The translations under genes were made by a program, and so were the position numbers. From positions 11,920 to 75,919 of the forward strand of contig JBBDXN010000134.1 of NCBI GenBank assembly GCA_040902305.1: 64,000 nt of DNA. The letters are read 5' to 3'. Below the pieces are notes generated by a model. The model was not told the DNA's origin, made no database searches, and saw nothing but the letters and a program-made list of their open reading frames with translations. This stretch comes from Candidatus Rokuibacteriota bacterium (GTDB lineage: Bacteria; Methylomirabilota; Methylomirabilia; Rokubacteriales; CSP1-6). Below, in pieces: positions 9,555 to 35,342 of this stretch (positions are counted from its first letter, which is position 1; every line of letters begins with the position of its first letter).

Positions 9555-10394
9555 TTATCGTCCGGTGAAGCGGGGCGCGCGCTTCTCGACGAAGTGGGCC
9601 ACGCCTTCCTTGAAGTCTTCGGTGGTGAAGCTCCGGCGCATCTCGTCGTCGCCGACCGCCGTCGCCTCCGCCAGGCTCTGGAACTGCGCCTCCCAGAGCT
9701 GGCGCTTCATGACCCGGAGCGAGCGCGGCGACACCAGGTCCGCGAGCTCGCGCGCGTAGGCGCGCACGTCGTCCTGGAGGCTGGCCGCCGGCTTCACCTG
9801 CGCGACCAGGCCCATCGCGAGCGCCTCCGCCGCGGTGATCGTGCGCGCGGACAGCAGCAGGTCGAAGGCATGCTGCAGGCCCACCAGGCGCGGGAGCATC
9901 CAGCTCGCCCCGTGCTCGGCGATGAGCCCCCGCCGCGAGAACGCGGTGGTGAAGACCGCGGTGTCGGCGGCGATGCGCAGATCGCAGTAGAGCGAGACGA
10001 CCAGGCCGAGCCCGGCGGTGGCCCCGTTCAGCGCCGCGATGATCGGCTTGGGGACCATCGGGAAGTAGGCGTAGGGCCCGCGGAAGTCGGGGCGGACGTC
10101 TCCGCCGGCGCCGGCCGCGTCATCCGGCTCGCCGCGCTCCGAGGAGCCCGCCGGCTCCTGCCGGCCCGCGCCCGCGATGCCGGAGAGCATCTGCATGTCG
10201 GCGCCCGCGCAGAAGCCGCGCCCGGCCCCGGGCAGCACGATCACGCGCACCGCCTCGTCGCGCCCGGCCTCCTCCATCGCCTGCCGCACCTCGCGCCCCA
10301 TCACGCCGGTCCACGCATTCAGCTTCTCGGGCCGGTTCAGGGTGACCGTGGCGATCCGCTCTCGCACCTCGTACAGGATCTGCTCGTAGCCCAT
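9555..10394 (-). CDS. enoyl-CoA hydratase/isomerase (crotonase) family protein
   Basis: 279 aa. VTLNRPEKLNAW, the GAGRGFCAGAD oxyanion motif and AALNGATAGLG. Confidence 0.9.
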   Translation of the reverse strand: MGYEQILYEVRERIATVTLNRPEKLNAWTGVMGREVRQAMEEAGRDEAVRVIVLPGAGRGFCAGADMQMLSGIAGAGRQEPAGSSERGEPDDAAGAGGDVRPDFRGPYAYFPMVPKPIIAALNGATAGLGLVVSLYCDLRIAADTAVFTTAFSRRGLIAEHGASWMLPRLVGLQHAFDLLLSARTITAAEALAMGLVAQVKPAASLQDDVRAYARELADLVSPRSLRVMKRQLWEAQFQSLAEATAVGDDEMRRSFTTEDFKEGVAHFVEKRAPRFTGR

Positions 10395-10436
10395 GCGCGC
10401 GCCCCCCTCGCGTGCCGCATGATAGCGCGTCCGGAC

Positions 10437-10500
10437 GGGGTCAGGTCTTACATTCCGACATTTCGACGCGGTGCGATGTTGGAATGTAAGACCTGACCCC
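10437..10500. repeat. perfect 20-bp inverted repeat (hairpin element), family 2
   Basis: GGGGTCAGGTCTTACATTCC (10437-10456) and GGAATGTAAGACCTGACCCC (10481-10500) flank a 24-nt spacer. A 28-nt solo arm recurs at 49752-49779. Confidence 0.85.
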
Positions 10501-10502
10501 AG

Positions 10503-11753
10503 CTAGCGGCGGTGCGACTCGCGGTCGATGGCGGGGCCGGCGAGGAGGGAGACGGCGGTGACGAGGCCGGAAAGGGCGGCGAAGACGGCCCAGGCGACTG
10601 CGTAGGAGTCGAAGCCCTCCAGCAGGAGGCCGAAGACCGGGGGGCCGATGAGCAGGCCCAGCACGATGGACGCGAAGGCCACGCCGCTCAGCAGGCCTGC
10701 CTGCCGCGGCCCGCCCGCCTCCGCGCTGATCACGAAGAAGATGCCGACCCAGCCGTAGGCGCCCACGCCGGCCAGGAAGGCGAGCAGCCCCGCGGTGACG
10801 GGCGCGGTCGCGGGCCACACCGCGTAGAGGGCGAAGATGACCGCGGCCAGGGCGCCCGTGACCACGAGCCAGAGGGAGCGCCGGCCGGTGGCCCAGCGGT
10901 CGCTGGCCGCGCCCAGCACGAGGCGGGACACCGCGCCGCCTCCCTGCGAGGCGGCCACGAGGAACCCGGCGCCGATCTTGTCGAAGCCGAGCGCCTGGAT
11001 CGTGAAGAGCGGCAGATAGCTCAGCACCGCGCCCTGGACCATGCCGAGCACGAAGCCGGCCGCGAAGAAGAGGACCAGCGCGGGGCGCCGCGCCCACCAC
11101 CACGTCGAGCCCGCGTCCGGCCCGCCGGGCGTGACCGGCGTCGTGCCGCGCGCGCCCTCGCGGAACGCGGCGAGCGGCCGCCAGCCGAGCGCCACCGGCG
11201 CCGCCACGATCACCGAGCAGGCCCCGATGGCGTAGCGCCAGCCCAGCGTGGCCGCGATGGCGGGCAGGGCCAGCGCCGAGATCAGGCCGCCCACCGTGAG
11301 GCCCATCTGCTTGACGCCCATCGCGATGCCGCGCTCGCTCACCGGGAAGGCGTCCATGATGGCCTTGCCCAGCGCGGGGTTCACGACACTCCAGCCGCTG
11401 CCCGCGACGAAGAGGCAGAAGAGGAAGGAGAGGAAGCCTGGTGCCAGCGCCGCCGCGAGGAGCCCGATCGCGCCCACCGCGAGGCCGCCCAGGAAGGCGG
11501 GTCGCACGCCGAGCCGATCGGCGAGCCGCCCGCCCGGCAGCGAGAACAGGAGGCCGGCGAGATAGATGGACGGGATGAGAAAGGCGACCTGGAATCGGGT
11601 GAGCCCGAGCCCCTCCACCAGGCTCGGCGAGAGCGGGGAGATGCCGAGCATGCCGACGGCGCCGGCGCCGTAGGAGGCGGTGAGGACGGTGAGCAGGCGC
11701 CACCGCGCGGGCAGCGCGGACGCGGCGCTCGCGGCCGGCGCGGATTCGCTCAC
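10503..11753 (-). CDS. MFS transporter
   Basis: Only the C-terminal 416 aa of the 936-aa track ORF look real: about 12 TM segments and the GGRLADRLG MFS motif. GTG start at 11753 overlaps the stop of the upstream gene (GTGA). Confidence 0.8.
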   Translation of the reverse strand: MSESAPAASAASALPARWRLLTVLTASYGAGAVGMLGISPLSPSLVEGLGLTRFQVAFLIPSIYLAGLLFSLPGGRLADRLGVRPAFLGGLAVGAIGLLAAALAPGFLSFLFCLFVAGSGWSVVNPALGKAIMDAFPVSERGIAMGVKQMGLTVGGLISALALPAIAATLGWRYAIGACSVIVAAPVALGWRPLAAFREGARGTTPVTPGGPDAGSTWWWARRPALVLFFAAGFVLGMVQGAVLSYLPLFTIQALGFDKIGAGFLVAASQGGGAVSRLVLGAASDRWATGRRSLWLVVTGALAAVIFALYAVWPATAPVTAGLLAFLAGVGAYGWVGIFFVISAEAGGPRQAGLLSGVAFASIVLGLLIGPPVFGLLLEGFDSYAVAWAVFAALSGLVTAVSLLAGPAIDRESHRR

Positions 11754-27597: not shown

Positions 27598-28691
27598 CTC
27601 CGGACCAACTCGGCGACCGACTTCAACGGACTGCCGTCTTTCCTTGTGATCGGCCGCCGCGCCGGCCCGGTCTGGTCCCCGAACGTGGGCTGCCAGCAGG
27701 AGTGCTTGCCCGCGCCGCCGGTCACGATCACGGTCAGGTCGTCGGCGGAGCGTACCGCGGGCACCATGGTGTCGGGCGCGTCCTTGGCGCCGCGCTGGAT
27801 CAGGTGCGCGCGGTACTCGTCACCGAGCCGCGCCAGCGGGAAGCGGGCGTGCTCGAAGAGGAACTCCTTGACCTGCCGCTTGGTGAAGCCGTCGCGCGCG
27901 ATCGTGGCGGCGTGCTCGGGGCCGAGCGAGAGCAGGGGATGGCCGCCGGCCAGGAGATTGTTGCTGCCCGCCTGGCCCATGGCGCCCGCGATCACCTTCA
28001 AGATGCCGAGGCCGGTGTAACTGAAGTGGTCCTGGATATTGTGCGGGCCCTCGCACGCGATTGCGGTGACCAGGCTCGTGGCGGCCGGGAAGCCGTGTTC
28101 AATGTGTAGTGGCTCCCACGGGTTCGCTTCCTCGTTCTCGGCCACGCAGTAGGCGATCTTGGCCGGGCTGCCCTGGGTGGCGCGGTCGCCGGTGCCGGGC
28201 AGGCCGCCGCCCACGTTCATCAGGACGAGCCGGATCGCGCGCCCGATCGTGAGGTTGGCGCGGAAGCCCTGGCCGAAGGCGTTGTAGCCCGAGTTGATGC
28301 CGACCTCTTTTGCGATCGGCCCGTTGACGATGATCAGCGGGGCCACCGGGTGCGTGGTGGCCTGGATGGAGTCGAGATTGAACGCGGGATCGGCCAGCGC
28401 CTCGACCGCGGTGAGGATGACCGGCAGGTATTCCGGCCGGCAGCCCGCCATGATCGCGTTGATCGCGATGCGCTCCACCGTGGCCTCGCCTTGGCGCGGC
28501 GGCAGCACCGCCATGACTTCGCGCGGCTCCCGATCGGTGATGCGCAGGAACTCGCGCACGTCCTCTTCGGTTGGGGGCACGATCGGCAGCCCGTCGGTCC
28601 AGCCCTGCCCCTGATAGTGCCGGTTGATCTCCGAGTAGCCGCCCTTGAGGCGGAAGATCTTGGCCGCCGGGCCCGAGGCGGACACGCTCAT
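27594..28691 (-). CDS. conserved hypothetical protein (last gene of the UGSC operon)
   Basis: 365 aa with coding-like composition. The ATG overlaps the UGSC gene stop (ATGA). I cannot assign a family to the motif WTDGLPIVPPT. Confidence 0.7.
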   Translation of the reverse strand: MSVSASGPAAKIFRLKGGYSEINRHYQGQGWTDGLPIVPPTEEDVREFLRITDREPREVMAVLPPRQGEATVERIAINAIMAGCRPEYLPVILTAVEALADPAFNLDSIQATTHPVAPLIIVNGPIAKEVGINSGYNAFGQGFRANLTIGRAIRLVLMNVGGGLPGTGDRATQGSPAKIAYCVAENEEANPWEPLHIEHGFPAATSLVTAIACEGPHNIQDHFSYTGLGILKVIAGAMGQAGSNNLLAGGHPLLSLGPEHAATIARDGFTKRQVKEFLFEHARFPLARLGDEYRAHLIQRGAKDAPDTMVPAVRSADDLTVIVTGGAGKHSCWQPTFGDQTGPARRPITRKDGSPLKSVAELVRS

Positions 28692-29218
28692 CCCCGCGTG
28701 ACCGCCTTCCGCACGATCTCGACCGCGAGCTCCGCCTTCTTCACAACCTCGTCCTCGCGGATGCCGCCCAGCGGGTGGGGGATCAAGGCCAGGGGCAGAT
28801 CGGCGAGCCCGCGGTTCTTCGACTCGAGCCTCGCCAACTGCTCGAACTCATACGTCCCCATGACCACGGTGGGGATCCCCCGCTGCTCCAGTACGATGGC
28901 GCCGTGGATACTCCACGACGTGCACGACCCTCAGTCGGCGCTGCCGACCAGGACGAAGTCGCACGTCGTGAGCGCGGCCAGGATGTCGGGCGACGGCGCG
29001 CCCGCGATGCCCTTCTCGCGCTTGACGACGTCGCGGACCCCGTACTTCTCCTTGAGGCGCGCGACCACCGCCAGCATCAGGGTGCCCGCGTTGGCCTTGC
29101 TGTTGTCGAGGATGCCCGCGCGCTTGCCCTCGAGGCTGGCCAGGCGGGGCGCCAGGCCCGAGGCGAGAATCCGAGGCTCGGCGGTGGGGTCGTACAGGAC
29201 CTGCTCGTCCTGGCTCAT
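28688..29218 (-). CDS. UGSC-family selenoprotein (in-frame UGA = Sec at 28931-28933)
   Basis: The track ORF (95 aa) stops at a TGA, but the frame continues 81 codons to TGA 28688-28690. That second stop forms an ATGA overlap with the next gene. Read-through gives ...VLVGSAD-U-GSCTSWSIHGAIVLEQRGIPTVV..., the defining U-G-S-C motif. A hairpin follows 10 nt after the UGA. Confidence 0.8.
28900..28920 (-). other. putative bacterial SECIS hairpin of the UGSC gene
   Basis: The mRNA reads CGU-CGUGGA-GUA-UCCACG-GCG. This is a 6-bp perfect stem extendable to 9 bp including a G-U pair, with G and U in the apical loop, starting 10 nt after the UGA. Confidence 0.55.
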
Positions 29219-30735: not shown

Positions 30736-32451
30736 CTACGCGGTCGCCCGCGCGAGCGGGCCGCGCAGGAGCCGTCCGGGGTGCGCGCCGGTGTGCTTGC
30801 CGTCACGCAGCAGGATCTCGCCGTTGACCACGGTGGCCGCGATGCCGCGGGTGCGCTGGATCAGCCGCTTGGCCCCCGCGGGCAGGTCCCGCACCACCTC
30901 GGGCAGCTCGGCCGCGATGGTGTCGGGATCGAAGACCACGAAGTCGGCGGCCATGCCCTCACGGATCAGGCCGCGGTCGGTGAAGCCCCAGTAGCTGGCG
31001 GGCACGAACGACAGCATGCGCACCGCCTGCTCGAGCGTGAGCGCCTGCTTGGCGCGCACCCAGTGGCTCAAGAGATAGGTCTGGAGCGAGCTGTCCATGA
31101 GCTGGGAGACGTGGGCGCCCGAGTCGGAGAAGGTCACCACCGCCTGCGGGTGCTTGATCAGCTCGAGCGCCAGCTCCTGGTTCTCGTTGGCGATCGGGTG
31201 GAAGAAGAAGCGGTCCATGTCCTTCTCGAGCGCCAGATCGATCATGGCCTCGACCGGGTCGACGCCCCGCTCGCGGGCGATCTCGGCCACCGAGCGGTGC
31301 GGCGGATCCACCGAGTCCAGCACGAAGATCCAGTCGTACGCGGCCTGGCGGGCCTCGGTACCGAGGGCCTTGCGGCTGTCCCGCTCGCGCGAGGCCTCGA
31401 CCAGCTTCCGGCGCAGCTCGGGGTCGCGCAGCCGCGTCTGCTGCTCGCCGAGCGGCAGGGCGCGCAGCTCCTTCCACACCGGCAGGCGATCGAACGGCAT
31501 CTGGGTCTTGAACGAGAGCACGAGCGACAGCGCGCGGCTGTGGACCTGGGCGAACATCCGCCCGCCCGCCCGGTTGGTCTCCTCGATCAGCCGCACGTAG
31601 TGGCGCCACATGTCGGGCGCGTCCTTGCGGGTGAAGAGGCCGAAGGTGATCGGCCGGCCGGACTCGACGGCCAGCGCCTTGAGCCGCTTGTGGTAGTCGG
31701 GCAGGTCCGGGTGGTCCACCTTGCGGTCCACGCCCTCGCCCGCCAGCTCGAAGATGCCCGCGTTGAGCTCGCCCATCACGCCGACCAGGCGGCGCACCTC
31801 GTCCCAGCTCGCCATGCGGCTCGCCACCGGGCGGGAGTCGGGCGTCTCGTGGCTGGGCGACCGGGAGGTCGTGAAGCCGATCGCGCCGGCCATCAGCGCG
31901 TTGCGCAGCTCGCCCTCCATCGCGGCCAGGTCGTCCTCGCTCGCCGCTCCATCGAACGCGCGCTCGCCCATCACGTAGGTGCGCAGGGCGGAGTGGCCGA
32001 TGTAGCCCGAGTAGTTGATGCCCTTGGGCAGCGAGTCGAGCGTGTCGAGGAACTCGGGGAAGGTGGTCCAGCGCCAGTCGATGCCGGCTTCCATGGCCTC
32101 GGCCGCGATGTCCTCGGCGCGCTGCAGGTTGCGGATGACCAGGTGCCGGTCTTCCTTGGCGCAGGGGGCGAGGGTGAAGCCGCAGTTGCCCATGACGACG
32201 CTGGTGATCCCGTGCCAGCAGGAGGACGTCCCGAGCGGATCCCAGAAGATCTGGGCGTCCATGTGGGTGTGCCCGTCCACGAATCCCGGCGCGACGACCC
32301 GGCCCTCCGCGTCGATGACTTCTCGAGCGCTTTCGCGAAGGCGACCGATGGCAGAGATCCGGCCGTTGGTCACTCCAACATCCGCGCGAAATCGCGGCAG
32401 GCCGGATCCGTCCACCACCCATCCGTTCTTGATCAGCAGGTCATAGGCCAT
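30736..32451 (-). CDS. amidohydrolase, N-acyl-D-amino-acid deacylase (D-aminoacylase) family
   Basis: 571 aa. DLLIKNG.VVDG.G, PGF.D.HTH.D and GIT..V.GNCG motifs. Confidence 0.88.
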   Translation of the reverse strand: MAYDLLIKNGWVVDGSGLPRFRADVGVTNGRISAIGRLRESAREVIDAEGRVVAPGFVDGHTHMDAQIFWDPLGTSSCWHGITSVVMGNCGFTLAPCAKEDRHLVIRNLQRAEDIAAEAMEAGIDWRWTTFPEFLDTLDSLPKGINYSGYIGHSALRTYVMGERAFDGAASEDDLAAMEGELRNALMAGAIGFTTSRSPSHETPDSRPVASRMASWDEVRRLVGVMGELNAGIFELAGEGVDRKVDHPDLPDYHKRLKALAVESGRPITFGLFTRKDAPDMWRHYVRLIEETNRAGGRMFAQVHSRALSLVLSFKTQMPFDRLPVWKELRALPLGEQQTRLRDPELRRKLVEASRERDSRKALGTEARQAAYDWIFVLDSVDPPHRSVAEIARERGVDPVEAMIDLALEKDMDRFFFHPIANENQELALELIKHPQAVVTFSDSGAHVSQLMDSSLQTYLLSHWVRAKQALTLEQAVRMLSFVPASYWGFTDRGLIREGMAADFVVFDPDTIAAELPEVVRDLPAGAKRLIQRTRGIAATVVNGEILLRDGKHTGAHPGRLLRGPLARATA

Positions 32452-32526
32452 CGCGCTGGCTCCTCTCCGCCCCGCCGGGGGTCCTTCTGAGAAACGGCCC
32501 CATGGTACTCCACCAGTCCCCCCCGC

Positions 32527-32982
32527 TCAACGATCCAGGCGGGCGACCGAGACCCCGGCCGGGCCGCCTCCACCGTCCCGGTACAGCGCGTCGATGAGCG
32601 GACAGTGGGAGGCCTTGCCCGACGCGCAGCGCGCGACCGTGTCTCGGAGGACGCGCTCCATCTCTCTCAAGCTGGCGATCTTGGCCCGCACGTCCTCGAG
32701 ATGCGTCGCGGCAAGGCCGCGAGCCTCGGCGCAGGGGCGCTTGCGGTGGTCGGCCAGGGCCAGCAGGGCTCGTACCTCGTGGATGGAGAAACCCAGCGCC
32801 CGGGCTCGCCGGACGAAGGCGAGCCGTTTCAGGTGGTCTGTCCCGTAGAGACGGTAACCGCCGCCACTTCGCGCGGGTGTCGGCAGGAGCCCGGCCCGCT
32901 CGTAGTACCGGATCGTCTCGACGTTGCAGCCGGTGCGCTTGGAAAGGACCCCGATGGCGAAGCGGACTGCAATAGCCGGCAT
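32527..32982 (-). CDS. merR: MerR-family regulator with Hg(II)-type Cys triad
   Basis: 151 aa from the ATG at 32982, preceded by GGAGGAG. HTH GCNVETIRYYERAGLLP. Cys84, Cys119 and Cys127 (spacings 35 and 8, against 35 and 9 in Tn501 MerR) and the C-terminal HCPLI motif. Confidence 0.85.
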   Translation of the reverse strand: MPAIAVRFAIGVLSKRTGCNVETIRYYERAGLLPTPARSGGGYRLYGTDHLKRLAFVRRARALGFSIHEVRALLALADHRKRPCAEARGLAATHLEDVRAKIASLREMERVLRDTVARCASGKASHCPLIDALYRDGGGGPAGVSVARLDR

Positions 32983-33014
32983 GGCGGTCTCCTCCGGTCG
33001 GCTGAAAATATGTG

Positions 33015-33045
33015 TTGAGTCTGTAGCCGCTACAGACTTTATCAT
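33015..33045 (+). promoter_or_regulatory. MerR-type operator/promoter (19-bp spacer with perfect dyad)
   Basis: TTGAGT (33015-33020), a 19-nt spacer, then TATCAT (33040-33045). The dyad GTCTGTAGC-C-GCTACAGAC spans 33019-33037. The -10 ends 6 nt before the merB-like ATG. Confidence 0.75.
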
Positions 33046-33051
33046 CCCCCC

Positions 33052-33714
33052 ATGGCGACCCTGCACATCCTGACCGCCGACGAGCTCACCGCTCTCGACC
33101 TGGAAGGCCGGTGGAGGACGCGACGGGTCGCTCGGGAGCTCAGGATGTCTCGGCGGATTCTGCGGATGTTCCTGGATCGCGGCGGCCCGATCCCGGTTCA
33201 AGACATCGTCTCGGCCTCCGAGGATTCCGCTGGGTCCGTTCATCAGACGTTGACCGCGCTGGACGACGACGATCTGATCCTCATTCGTGATGGCCAGATA
33301 GACGTCGCGTACCCGTTCTCCGCTTCCCCGACGCCGTTCGTCGTCCGTCTGGCCGAGGGCCGGGAGCGGTACGCCTGCTGCGCGATGGACGCACTCGGCA
33401 TCGCGCCGATGGTCGGCCAGCGCATCGAGATCCGATCCCGCTGTCATCACTGCGGCGAGCCCCTGCAGTTCCCGGTCGATCCGCAGGGCCCGGGGCCCAG
33501 GGCGGAAGGCATCATGCTCTGGATCGGCAAGCAACCGGAAGAGAGATGCCGAGTCGCCGATACGTATTGAACGACCATCAATTTCTTCCGGTCGGAAGAA
33601 CATCTGAGGGCATGGCGGGAGGCGAACCCGACGGTCGAAGGAGCCGGGACCACGGTGGCAGAGGGCTTCAAGCTCGGTGACCGCATCTTCGGGGGGCTTC
33701 TCACAGGAGAGTAA
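33052..33714 (+). CDS. merB: organomercurial lyase MerB homolog with in-frame UGA (Sec) at the Cys159-equivalent position
   Basis: The track ORF stops at TGA 33568-33570, but the frame stays open to TAA 33712-33714. AYPFSA and [11 protein letters not shown] (Cys96-x-x-Asp99 equivalent) lie upstream. Read-through gives [20 protein letters not shown], compared with MerB SFCCHVHFFAS. A SECIS-like hairpin lies 12 nt downstream. Confidence 0.75.
33583..33600 (+). other. putative bacterial SECIS hairpin of the merB-like gene
   Basis: UUCUUCC-GGUC-GGAAGAA is a 7-bp perfect stem with a GGUC tetraloop, the same apical loop sequence as the E. coli fdhF SECIS. It starts 12 nt after the UGA. Confidence 0.6.
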
Positions 33715-33716
33715 GG

Positions 33717-33956
33717 ATGGCGGATCGTCGAATCACGGTCTACTGGTCCTCGACCTGACAGTCCTGCCACGCGGCGAAGGAGTTCCTTTCGTCTCGGGGA
33801 GTGCCGTTCACGGCGAAGAACGTGGCGGAGGACGCGACCGCCCGTGAGGAGCTGATCGGCAAGACCGGCCGGATGGCGGTGCCGGTGATCACGGTGGACG
33901 ATGTGGTGATCGTCGGGTTCGACCGGGGTCGGCTGCAGCGGCTCCTCGGGCCATGA
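33717..33956 (+). CDS. glutaredoxin-like (NrdH/Grx fold) selenoprotein, U-x-x-C active site
   Basis: Not in the ORF track. ATG 33717 (GGAGAG 8 nt upstream), TGA at 33756-33758, stop TGA 33954-33956 overlapping the next start (ATGA). Translation: MADRRITVYWSST-U-QSCHAAKEFLSSRGVPFTAKNV...GRMAVPVITVDDVVIVGFDRGRLQRLL. This has the Grx layout with UQSC where CxxC is expected, and the cis-Pro VP motif. Confidence 0.75.
33774..33792 (+). other. putative bacterial SECIS hairpin of the Grx-like gene
   Basis: GCGAAGG-AGUU-CCUU(U)CGU: a stem with one bulged U and a GU-containing tetraloop, starting 15 nt after the UGA. Confidence 0.45.
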
Positions 33957-34243
33957 CCGTCGCCGCGGTTCGCTGCCCCGACTGTGGCGCGCCGATCACC
34001 CTGGCCGCAGGCCTCGAGTCAGGCGCCTTGCTCGACTGCCCGAACTGCGCGGGGCATGCGGTTCGGGTTCGGGAAGAGGACGGCCGCTGGTCCGCCACCC
34101 TGGCTTACCGAGTGAGCTGCCCGACCTGCGATGAAGTCATGGCCCTTGCCGAGGATGCCAAGCCGGGGGATACGGTCTCGTGCTGTGGCCGCCGCTACCG
34201 ACTCACGTTCGAGTACGGCGCGTTCGCCGCCGAGGAAGCGTAG
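33953..34243 (+). CDS. Cys-rich double zinc-ribbon protein (LysW-like ribbons)
   Basis: 96 aa. CPDCG...CPNC and CPTC...CCG pairs. ATGA overlap with the Grx-like gene. Confidence 0.6.
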   Translation: MTVAAVRCPDCGAPITLAAGLESGALLDCPNCAGHAVRVREEDGRWSATLAYRVSCPTCDEVMALAEDAKPGDTVSCCGRRYRLTFEYGAFAAEEA

Positions 34244-34325
34244 GAGCGAGCTCCAACCAGCCTCGTGGACGCCAACCCGGCCTCCTGATACCCTACCTGC
34301 CGGCCACCAGACGGGGGGAGGGCAC

Positions 34326-35342
34326 ATGGATCTGGGTGTTTTCGACCATCTCGACCGCCGGGACATGCCGGTGACCGACTTCTACGAGCACCGGCTGCGG
34401 CTGCTCGAGAAGTACGACGCGGCGGGCTTCTACTCCTATCACCTGGCCGAGCACCACGCGACCCCGCTCGGGCTGGCCCCGGTGCCCGGGATCTTTCTGG
34501 CCGCGGCCACCCAGCGCACCCGCCGCATCCGCCTCGGGCCCTGCGTGTACTGCCTGCCGCTCTACAACCCACTCCGGCTGATCGAGGAAGTCTGCATGCT
34601 CGATCACCTCTCGCGGGGCCGCTTCGACTTCGGGGTGGGCCGCGGCATCGTGCCCTACGAGATGGCCTTCTTCGACCTGCATCACCTGGAGACCGAGGAG
34701 ATCTACCGGGAGACGCTCGAGGTCGTCCTGCAGGGGTTGACCAGCGACGTGCTCGACCACCGCGGGCCGAAGTACACCTTCCGGAAGGTCCCGATGATCC
34801 TGAAGCCGCTCCAGACGCCGCACCCGCCGCTCTGGTACGGGCTCGGGCACGCGGCCGGCGCGGAGTGGGCCGCCACCAACCGGGCCAACGTGATCACCAA
34901 CCTGGGGGCCGAGATGTCGGCGCCGCTCTTCGTGCGCTACCGCGAGGTGTGGCAGCGCAAGCACGGGGATGCGGCGACGCCGAAGCTCGGCATGGGCCGT
35001 CACGTGGTGGTGGCCCCCACCGAGGACGCGGCCCTGGCGCTCGGCCGCGCCAACTACGCCGTCTGGTACGGGAACCTCACCAAGCTCTGGCGTGACTTCG
35101 GCGCGATCCCGTTCCGGTTCGCGCCCGACTTCGACGAGGCGCGGCGCCGCGGGGTCGCCATCGCGGGCACGCCGGCCCAGGTGCGCGCGGAGTTCGAGCG
35201 GCAGGTGGCGGCGAGTGGCTGCAGCTACATGACCTGCCGGCTGATGTTCGGCGAGATGACCGAGGCGGAGGCGGCGGCCAACGTGGACCTGTTCGTCGCC
35301 CAGGTCATGCCGCACGTCACCGCGCTGACGGTGCCGGCGTGA
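34326..35342 (+). CDS. LLM-class (luciferase-like) flavin/F420-dependent oxidoreductase
   Basis: 338 aa from the ATG at 34326, preceded by GGGGGAGGG. AEHH..P.G, LSRGRFDFGVGRG. Confidence 0.85.
   Translation: MDLGVFDHLDRRDMPVTDFYEHRLRLLEKYDAAGFYSYHLAEHHATPLGLAPVPGIFLAAATQRTRRIRLGPCVYCLPLYNPLRLIEEVCMLDHLSRGRFDFGVGRGIVPYEMAFFDLHHLETEEIYRETLEVVLQGLTSDVLDHRGPKYTFRKVPMILKPLQTPHPPLWYGLGHAAGAEWAATNRANVITNLGAEMSAPLFVRYREVWQRKHGDAATPKLGMGRHVVVAPTEDAALALGRANYAVWYGNLTKLWRDFGAIPFRFAPDFDEARRRGVAIAGTPAQVRAEFERQVAASGCSYMTCRLMFGEMTEAEAAANVDLFVAQVMPHVTALTVPA

Follow-up and report, generated by a model that had tools for sequence, protein, structure and literature searches.

A predicted MerR-controlled, selenocysteine-dependent organomercurial-lyase module in a Rokubacterial contig and its selenium-rich mer relatives

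The stretch of DNA analysed here, hereafter the window, comprises 64,000 nucleotides of contig JBBDXN010000134.1 (assembly GCA_040902305.1) from a Candidatus Rokuibacteriota bacterium. Coordinates are positions in the window unless they are assigned to a locus of a relative (L numbers), and P numbers denote homologous proteins of this analysis. The window carries a compact module in which a merR-type regulator gene and a gene coding for a MerB-like protein diverge across a 69-bp intergenic region, the latter gene being followed by one coding for a glutaredoxin-like (Grx-like) protein and one coding for a small zinc-ribbon protein (Table 1). The MerB-like and Grx-like genes each contain an in-frame TGA, and are referred to as merB(U) and grx(U). 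They are separated by 2 nt (33715-33716), while the Grx-like and ribbon genes overlap by ATGA (33953-33956), so that the tightly packed three-gene unit described in the first-pass annotation of this DNA could be read at both junctions. Its other structural observations were also found in the sequence: the divergent Hg-type merR with its three Cys residues and HCPLI motif, the UxxC motif of the Grx-like protein, whose TGA is codon 14, and the four Cys pairs of the 96-residue protein (C8/C11, C29/C32, C56/C59 and C77/C78), of which the first two pairs form site 1 and the last two form site 2.

Table 1 Coordinates of the module features in the window and of related genes in other loci.
Feature	Location	Strand	Remarks
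merR-type regulator, 151 aa	32527-32982	-	Cys84/Cys119/Cys127, motif HCPLI
MerR-type divergent promoter/operator	33015-33045	+	hexamers and dyad in sequence, kept in relatives
MerB-like organometal lyase selenoprotein (predicted), 220 aa	33052-33714	+	Cys110-x-x-Asp113, Sec173
UGA, Sec173 codon of MerB-like gene (predicted)	33568-33570	+	Cys in homologs
SECIS-like hairpin of MerB-like gene	33583-33600	+	fold and comparative conservation
Glutaredoxin/NrdH/YruB-like selenoprotein (predicted), 79 aa	33717-33956	+	active site U14-Q-S-C17
UGA, Sec14 codon of Grx-like gene (predicted)	33756-33758	+	motif T-U-Q-S-C
SECIS-like hairpin of grx gene	33773-33793	+	8-bp stem, 5-nt loop
Tandem LysW-like zinc-ribbon protein, 96 aa	33953-34243	+	Pfam Zn_ribbon_LysW twice
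Sec-containing ribbon genes	L018 2149-2430; L027 3206-3487; L033 10939-11193; L034 636-890		about 25 more (L098-L131)
MerP-like GMT-U-xx-U and MerT-like ...SAC-U-IGP genes	L094 6977-7192; L101 4188-4406; L104 5570-5884, 5953-6189		
MerA-like pyridine-nucleotide disulfide oxidoreductase	L033 11261-12601; L034 2983-4347		directly after ribbon
Lone MerB(U) paralogs (>35)	L002-L006, L009, L010, L012, L014, L023, L024, L028, L030-L032, L035, L038-L057, L059-L062		match ~10001-10660 in most

The regulator matches the Pfam families MerR (PF00376), MerR_1 (PF13411) and MerR-DNA-bind (PF09278). It is 44% identical to the MerR of Tn21, with C84, C119 and C127 aligning with Cys82, Cys117 and Cys126 of the latter, and its metal loop has one residue fewer. 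Among the NCBIfam models, MerR (TIGR02051) ranks first, its 135.1 bits falling under the cutoff of 150.85 bits, and the protein also scores on the CadR/PbrR (116.5 bits) and CueR (116.4 bits) models. The three Cys are retained in the full-length merR orthologs adjoining merB(U). The promoter consists of a -35 hexamer TTGAGT (33015-33020), a 19-nt spacer and a -10 hexamer TATCAT (33040-33045), with a dyad, AGTCTGTAGC/GCTACAGACT, forming a perfect 10+10 inverted repeat (100% complementary) at positions 33018-33038. A standard sigma-70 scan of 32400-34500 found no promoter, because the scan takes only spacers of 16-18 nt and the MerR-type spacer is 19 nt long; the promoter was read directly and then tested by conservation in relatives, 22 of 23 distinct ones having a TTGAGTCTG-AG...CTACAGAC box upstream of merB(U). 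Judged by these sequence features, the regulator is an Hg-type three-Cys MerR with a MerR-type promoter architecture, and its inducer would be Hg(II) or an organomercury compound. The ATG of merB lies 6 nt past the -10 hexamer in the window, and no Shine-Dalgarno sequence is present (33040-33054), so the transcript is probably leaderless. Most of the relatives compared have a merB leader of 25-40 nt, often with a GGAGG-type ribosome-binding site.

The comparative data indicate that both in-frame TGAs are genuine selenocysteine (Sec) codons. With the MerB-like protein read through the TGA as query, 1140 relatives were retrieved; the best 120 are mostly 170-173 residues long and cover 78% of the query, which means that the database entries end exactly at the TGA, and the full-length members P0017 and P0039 carry a Cys at the position of residue 173. 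A scan of GTDB genomes gave 80 loci, mostly from metagenome-assembled genomes (MAGs) labelled Rokubacteria or Methylomirabilota, and codons were checked using tblastn, reading through stops. The codon at residue 173 is TGA in about 60 of the GTDB loci and TGC in L058 and in distant mycobacterial homologs; some Cys-form labels in the context table are partial matches missing the Sec codon, and only L058 is a verified TGC. The TGA at this position was found in 70 distinct sequence contexts and that of the Grx-like gene in 53, all aligned with Cys, and both the coding signal and the Pfam MerB domain run on past the TGA. A hairpin resembling a selenocysteine insertion sequence (SECIS), UUCUUCC-GGUC-GGAAGAA, begins 13 nt after the UGA of the MerB-like gene. 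Across 56 distinct sequences, with protein identities of only 40-70%, its six stem pairs either do not vary or stay wobble-compatible, and its codons depart from the genes' own usage (CGG in 56/56 sequences against 38%, GAA in 50/56 against 18% and TCG in 54/56 against 45%); L058, which is a Cys form, no longer has it. The hairpin of the grx gene begins 15 nt after the UGA and is kept in 22 sequences, with one compensatory change from a C-G to an A-U pair (L033 and L034). No Rfam family matched anywhere in the window at gathering thresholds, so that no curated SECIS or tRNA-Sec model was applicable. On the minus strand, positions 28688-29218 probably code for a third selenoprotein, a UGSC-family member, with a TGA at 28931-28933 (...VGSAD-U-GSCTSW...); with U replaced by C, its product scores 120.5 bits on NF041046, for which the cutoff is 125. 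Methylomirabilota reportedly have very large selenoproteomes, with 63 predicted selenoprotein genes in one MAG (PMC13188914), which together with the third gene gives indirect support for Sec decoding.

The MerB-like protein scores 109.2 bits on the Pfam family MerB (PF03243, gathering threshold 27), its residues 89-214 covering profile positions 1-126 of 126 across the TGA. In a HMMER alignment with the crystallised MerB and MerB2, C110 and D113 fall on Cys96 and Asp99, and U173 falls on Cys159, where the first-pass annotation had placed the UGA; the alignment at the Sec site reads 'sfC(S)hvhFF' against 'tyCttinFF'. The catalytic triad position 159 would accordingly hold Sec173 instead of Cys, which is chemically compatible but departs from the definition used in a survey of MerB proteins (PMC8261052). 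The top-ranked NCBIfam models for the module are MerR, MerB and a YruB-type glutaredoxin-like model, each with a score under its curated cutoff; for MerB these are 81.8 bits against 193 (NF009710) and 60.1 against 200 (NF033555). An AlphaFold2 model of the Cys homolog P0017 (58% identical) has a mean predicted local distance difference test (pLDDT) value of 87.5, and the 11 best PDB matches all belong to MerB or MerB2 (TM values of 0.53-0.75), the E-values being about 1e-11 for the ten that are crystal structures and, in the case of the NMR model, 1.4e-8. The modelled structure thus gives the MerB-like protein a MerB fold, and its sequence suggests a lyase activity.

Membership of SaoL, the MerB-related protein encoded at the locus named selenocysteine-assisted organometallic (SAO), was rejected on score, motif and neighbourhood. 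The SaoL model NF040728 gives 69.2 bits against a cutoff of 140 and aligns over profile positions 13-129 of 159 only; the Sec context is ...DTY-U-TT... in the window and ...SL-U-TT... in relatives, not the CU dipeptide of SaoL; and none of the nine-gene SAO neighbourhood (SaoA/P/B/X, SaoE, SaoC, SaoT, SaoD) was found among the neighbours of the module. The window protein is most aptly regarded as a distinct lineage of Sec-containing MerB. Lone merB(U) paralogs were also found (Table 1), with alpha/beta hydrolase, crotonase-like and luciferase-like monooxygenase genes as neighbours in L003-L006 and L009. An in-frame stop, which probably coincides with the position of Sec173, is also present in two further MerB homologs that lie in otherwise canonical merT-merA operons, one in a Nitrospiraceae MAG (L164, 358-981) and one in a Rokubacteria MAG (L139, 2798-3298). 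The former is outside Methylomirabilota.

The operon context was compared after merging the MerB-based and ribbon-based locus sets, which gave 54 distinct ribbon genes from Methylomirabilota-type MAGs and a few differently labelled bins. The pairing of Grx-like and zinc-ribbon genes, for which the first-pass annotation had proposed a survey of MerB(U) neighbourhoods, is conserved: grx lies directly upstream of the ribbon gene in 49 of the 54 cases, and MerB upstream of grx in 34. A clear merB(U)-grx(U)-ribbon arrangement was found at 24 loci, a divergent merR being detected in 20 of them and transport genes downstream in 15. In most relatives with sufficient downstream sequence, the module is followed by merF, a gene coding for a MerT-like membrane protein with a CC motif (CCm; about 120 residues, weakly similar to MerT) and a gene coding for a MerP-like UxxU protein; MerF of the relatives scores 63.2 bits (cutoff 50) and the MerP-like protein 110 bits on NF041115 (cutoff 95). 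A canonical MerA, which has NmerA, CVNIGC and a CC pair at its C-terminus, comes after the ribbon in L127/L134, where the operon order is T(U)-P(U)-B-Z(U2)-CCm-MerA, and after MerB(U) in L139, while a MerA-like flavoprotein with neither NmerA nor the CC tail follows the ribbon in L033, L034 and L109. The loci L082 and L085 lie in metal-resistance islands with P-type ATPases and CDF transporters. The grx-ribbon pair also occurs without merB, together with merR, merF, CCm or merP-like genes (for example in L100, L104 and L108), which ties the pair to the handling of Hg(II) and not to the maintenance of MerB. The pair looks like the core Hg(II)-handling component, with MerB as a broad-spectrum accessory.

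The window belongs to a minimal form, also seen in L026, L091, L096 and L097, which is devoid of transport genes despite at least 2.9 kb of downstream sequence. A tblastn search of the 64-kb window with MerA, MerT, MerP, MerC and MerE of Tn21 and with Rokubacterial MerF, CC-membrane and MerP-like proteins gave no match at E<=1e-3, and a rerun to which the MerA-like reductase of L033 had been added (E<=1e-4) listed no reductase or transporter match for the window. The earlier statement that merA, merT and merP are not recognisable in the window thus held. The first-pass annotation had also taken these genes, if they occurred in the same operon context, as a sign against its proposal; they do occur in that context in relatives, and not in the window. 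Accordingly, the module represents a reduced form of a selenium-rich mer system and need not be independent of MerA.

Nearly all of the in-frame TGAs detected by tblastn in all loci align with a known or presumed metal-ligand Cys, apart from a handful of stray single TGA or TAG matches at non-Cys positions (e.g. with the MerR, MerE-like and CC-membrane queries). Besides the Cys159 equivalent of MerB and the first Cys of the CxxC of Grx, predicted Sec residues replace C32, C11 and C29 of the ribbon (26, 18 and 2 distinct contexts, respectively), both Cys of the GMTCxxC motif of the MerP-like UxxU protein (NF041115; 21 and 18 contexts), the second Cys of the CC pair of MerT (3 contexts) and the second Cys of the redox-active CxxxxC of the reductase of L033 and L034 (2 contexts). 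The MerP-like and MerT-like selenoprotein families share an operon with MerB(U), Grx(U) and the ribbon. The reductase carries the motif GTCLGRG-TGA-IPKK (CxxxxU), the protein of L109 being the Cys form (GGTCALRGCDPKK), and may represent an undescribed selenoprotein reductase of the mer system. Sec at ligand positions, as predicted from these alignments, fits well with a selenium-based hand-off of Hg. Of the selenium-based route that had been proposed for the window, the use of Sec at metal-ligand Cys positions therefore stands, extended across operons, while its standing outside the merA/merT/merP world does not.

The Grx-like protein scores 59.3 bits on the Pfam family Glutaredoxin and 82 bits on the NCBIfam model GlrX_YruB (cutoff 88.55). 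The ribbon protein, which matches Pfam Zn_ribbon_LysW (PF21344) in two stretches, belongs to a family of 537 database members, all unnamed or carrying generic automatic labels. Its AlphaFold2 model is all-beta (pLDDT 88.5), with LysW (3vpb_E) as the best PDB match at a root-mean-square deviation (rmsd) of 1.1 A over 45 columns. C8, C11, C29, C32, C56 and C77 are invariant in the alignment of relatives, and between one and three ligand Cys per protein are replaced by Sec in at least 26 distinct genes; two of the four Cys of the second ribbon are missing from L033 and L034. A LysW function was rejected for the lack of a carrier tail and of partner genes: the equivalog scores are 13.3 bits against 53.2 (TIGR01206) and 41.8 against 75 (NF041070) for LysW/ArgW, the C-terminus reads ...FAAEEA with no EDWGE-type acidic tail, and no ATP-grasp ligase (the LysX/ArgX partner) was seen among the immediate neighbours of the module. 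The occurrence of Sec in site 1 speaks against a purely structural zinc site and for a role in soft-metal binding or exchange.

Taken together, we consider it fairly probable that the window contains a MerR-controlled, Sec-dependent organomercurial-lyase module, predicted as a minimal member of a selenium-rich mer system common in Methylomirabilota (Rokubacteria, NC10). The link to mercury is provided by sequence and context, namely the conserved three-Cys MerR with its dyad operator and the linkage to merF, merT, merP and merA in relatives. In the proposed mechanism, Hg(II) or organomercury would bind to the three-Cys MerR, which would remodel the promoter with its 19-bp spacer and switch on merB(U)-grx(U)-ribbon. 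MerB would then bind R-Hg+ with Cys110 on one side and the selenolate of Sec173, which is always ionised, on the other, and Asp113 would protonate the carbon, with release of the hydrocarbon. The Hg(II), tightly bound by S and Se, could move by ligand exchange to Sec14/Cys17 of the redoxin and from there to the Cys4 site of the tandem ribbon, where it might be kept (buffering or sequestration) or be given to a reductase encoded elsewhere. Both the direction of this transfer and the final fate of Hg are what we infer from the gene set. A possible rationale is that a cell with dozens of selenoproteins would call for a scavenger matching the Hg affinity of its own selenols.

Several observations weigh against this assignment. 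None of merA, merT, merP and merF was found in the window. Folding of the single hairpin sequences is no better than that of shuffles (z = 0.30 and -1.10), which is why support for the hairpins was taken from comparative conservation, and the window contains zero tRNA genes (selA, selB and selD were not searched for). The sub-cutoff scores of the MerR and MerB equivalogs mean that metal and substrate specificity are unreadable from family membership. Finally, the MerB(U) paralogs of L002-L006, L009, L010 and about 30 more loci stand alone amid metabolic genes, with no merR, grx or ribbon and yet with the same SECIS hairpin, so that non-mercury substrates are possible. The most elementary alternative is that the TGAs are ordinary stops, in which case the genes would be truncated or in decay and the module would be an artefact that arises from translating past these codons. 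This would agree with the products of 172-173 residues annotated by gene callers and with a window devoid of tRNA-Sec, but the TGA falls exactly on the codon of the catalytic Cys in all of the distinct MerB and Grx sequences counted above, conservation extends to the hairpins and to the frame 3' of it, which completes the Pfam domain, and other members have a Cys codon there. An ordinary stop is thus contradicted by the comparative sequence data, and we regard it as extremely improbable. The module might also act on another soft metal or organometal (organotin, organolead, Cd, Au, Ag, Cu or a SAO-like metabolic intermediate). The MerR, MerB and SaoL scores are all below their cutoffs, with CadR/PbrR and CueR nearly equal to MerR; the orphan MerB(U) paralogs sit amid hydrolase, crotonase and luciferase-like genes; and Sec at a metal site may alter the substrate range (Haft and Gwadz, bioRxiv 10.1101/2022.07.06.499078). 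We nevertheless find this unlikely, considering that the partners in relatives are mercury-specific (MerF above cutoff, MerT, the MerP-like protein and a canonical MerA with C-terminal CC) and that the regulator retains all three Cys of the Hg(II) type.

The remaining alternatives concern what happens after the lyase step. Grx could serve to re-reduce a Cys110-Sec173 selenenylsulfide of MerB, with the ribbon as a structural zinc protein or small regulator and neither of them carrying Hg. Sec enzymes easily form selenenylsulfides and mostly need a dedicated reductant, the Grx falls in the NrdH/YruB-like redoxin group, and the ribbon folds as a Zn-binding LysW domain. However, grx(U)-ribbon occurs without MerB, beside merR, merF and merP-like genes, in at least 13 loci, and the replacement of ribbon ligand Cys by Sec is unexpected for a purely structural zinc site, so that pure redox maintenance by Grx is disfavoured and appears improbable. 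A conventional broad-spectrum mer system, in which the module is an organomercurial add-on, a MerA encoded elsewhere reduces Hg(II), and Grx and ribbon act as an NmerA-like shuttle, is a more serious possibility, if still short of an even chance, and overlaps the model preferred here because only the last step differs. The canonical MerA shares an operon with MerB and the ribbon in L127/L134 and adjoins MerB(U) in L139; in L033, L034 and L109 the gene after the ribbon codes for a MerA-like reductase; and the source contig of 81,462 bp extends about 17 kb beyond the window. On the other hand, most of the 54 ribbon loci have no reductase in their flanks, even with 6-9 kb of downstream sequence, and two GTDB scans gave at least 132 MerA loci, of which, among the matches listed, none lies in an assembly carrying the module. 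Those scans (a single-protein scan with very specific peptides and an alignment scan) are pattern-limited and non-exhaustive, so that they constitute weak evidence and the absence of merA is not established.

A bolder version of the selenium-based model, which we think rather doubtful, would have Grx (UxxC) and the ribbon (Cys/Sec4) as the end-point of a MerA-independent mercury pathway, with Hg(II) locked in selenolate/thiolate sites. The Hg(II) would then originate from release by MerB(U) or from import by MerF and MerP (UxxU), and a flavoenzyme-free conversion might occur, either by reductive elimination to Hg(0) with formation of a selenenylsulfide or by formation of inert HgSe. Such a pathway would guard the unusually large selenoproteome of Methylomirabilota and would be a second, selenium-based solution to detoxification alongside MerA.

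The flanks of the module differ from it in composition, GC being 0.64-0.66 across 32900-34100 compared to 0.70-0.72 on either side. Horizontal transfer was considered on this basis and not retained, as the dip is modest and too weak for that call; together with the non-syntenic flanks, it agrees with a possible status of the module as a mobile cassette. The neighbours in the window are a luciferase-like monooxygenase, a short-chain dehydrogenase/reductase (SDR) and an amidohydrolase-like open reading frame. The amidohydrolase, SDR, luciferase-like, Lin0512 and glyoxalase neighbours are beside the module in no other locus compared, and this lack of synteny with the other module loci places the flanks outside the conserved unit.

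Mercury resistance is among the best-understood systems of metal detoxification, and in the module a mer operon has been rebuilt on selenocysteine, joined by two conserved partners that are new; the window holds the minimal form. What is new is a MerR-controlled operon family which is widespread in Methylomirabilota and has predicted Sec at the Hg ligands of up to six proteins, as well as the two conserved, uncharacterised partners themselves, the UxxC redoxin and the tandem Cys/Sec ribbon. Since surveys of MerB demand Cys159, merB genes of the Sec type are missed, and since gene callers cut the proteins at 172-173 residues, the demethylation capacity of metagenomes is probably underestimated. 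The antagonism between Hg and Se in cells has long been discussed, and the module would give a genetic handle on it. The puzzle of genomes with MerB and no MerA becomes testable, and natural Sec/Cys pairs (L058 compared to the window) allow for probing the contribution of selenium to Hg-C cleavage and Hg transfer.

With regard to known systems, no account of merB(U)-grx(U)-ribbon operons under MerR control turned up in a literature search that did not cover Haft and Tolstoy 2025 (mSystems). Haft and Gwadz stated that they knew of no selenoprotein in mercury resistance other than a few MerT-like ones (bioRxiv 10.1101/2022.07.06.499078), and a large mer survey, which required Cys159, found a single MerB in Rokubacteria (PMC8261052). 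Sec at the position of MerB Cys159 was already known from SaoL of the SAO locus in Clostridioides difficile and other anaerobes, a protein with less than 15% identity to MerB and a CU motif; SaoL is confined to anaerobes, and a metabolic function, as opposed to one in resistance, was argued for it (Haft and Gwadz, bioRxiv 10.1101/2022.07.06.499078). Among known proteins SaoL is the nearest relative, and the window protein resembles it in its PF03243 fold, in Sec at the Cys159 equivalent and in sharing an operon with other selenoproteins. It differs in having Y-U (L-U in relatives), in the absence of SaoABP, SaoE and SaoC/T/D neighbours, in the control by MerR and the linkage of relatives to merF, merT, merP and merA, and in its hosts, which are soil and groundwater Methylomirabilota, whereas those of SaoL are strict anaerobic fermenters. 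UxxU metal-binding proteins of the heavy-metal-associated (HMA) type and MerT-like selenoproteins have been catalogued as isolated families (PMC13188914). Both have Sec at Hg ligands and lie directly downstream of the module in relatives; they are absent from the window by tblastn, and were described singly, not with MerB(U)-Grx(U)-ribbon.

The ribbon shares the zinc-ribbon globular domain of LysW/ArgW (PF21344; 3vpb_E, rmsd 1.1 A), from which it is set apart by its tandem duplication, by ligand Cys that can be Sec and by its mer-operon context. The HMA domains of NmerA and MerP carry Hg(II) by ligand exchange on a CxxC motif and take it from MerB. Grx and the ribbon would likewise be small, soluble, two-ligand carriers that remove Hg(II) from MerB or transporters, but with a thioredoxin fold and a zinc ribbon in place of the ferredoxin-like HMA fold, and with the use of selenolate. 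A parallel in organisation may be drawn with canonical mer (merRTPAD of Tn21/Tn501 and MerB of R831b), which has in common with the module the divergent three-Cys MerR, the dyad promoter with its 19-bp spacer and the Cys/Asp/Cys(Sec) triad of MerB, and with the relatives also MerF, MerT, MerP and sometimes MerA. In contrast to canonical mer, Cys159 is replaced by Sec, the window holds no merA, merT or merP, the scores fall short of the equivalog cutoffs, and the place between merB and the transport genes is taken by the UxxC redoxin and the tandem ribbon, two additional conserved genes.

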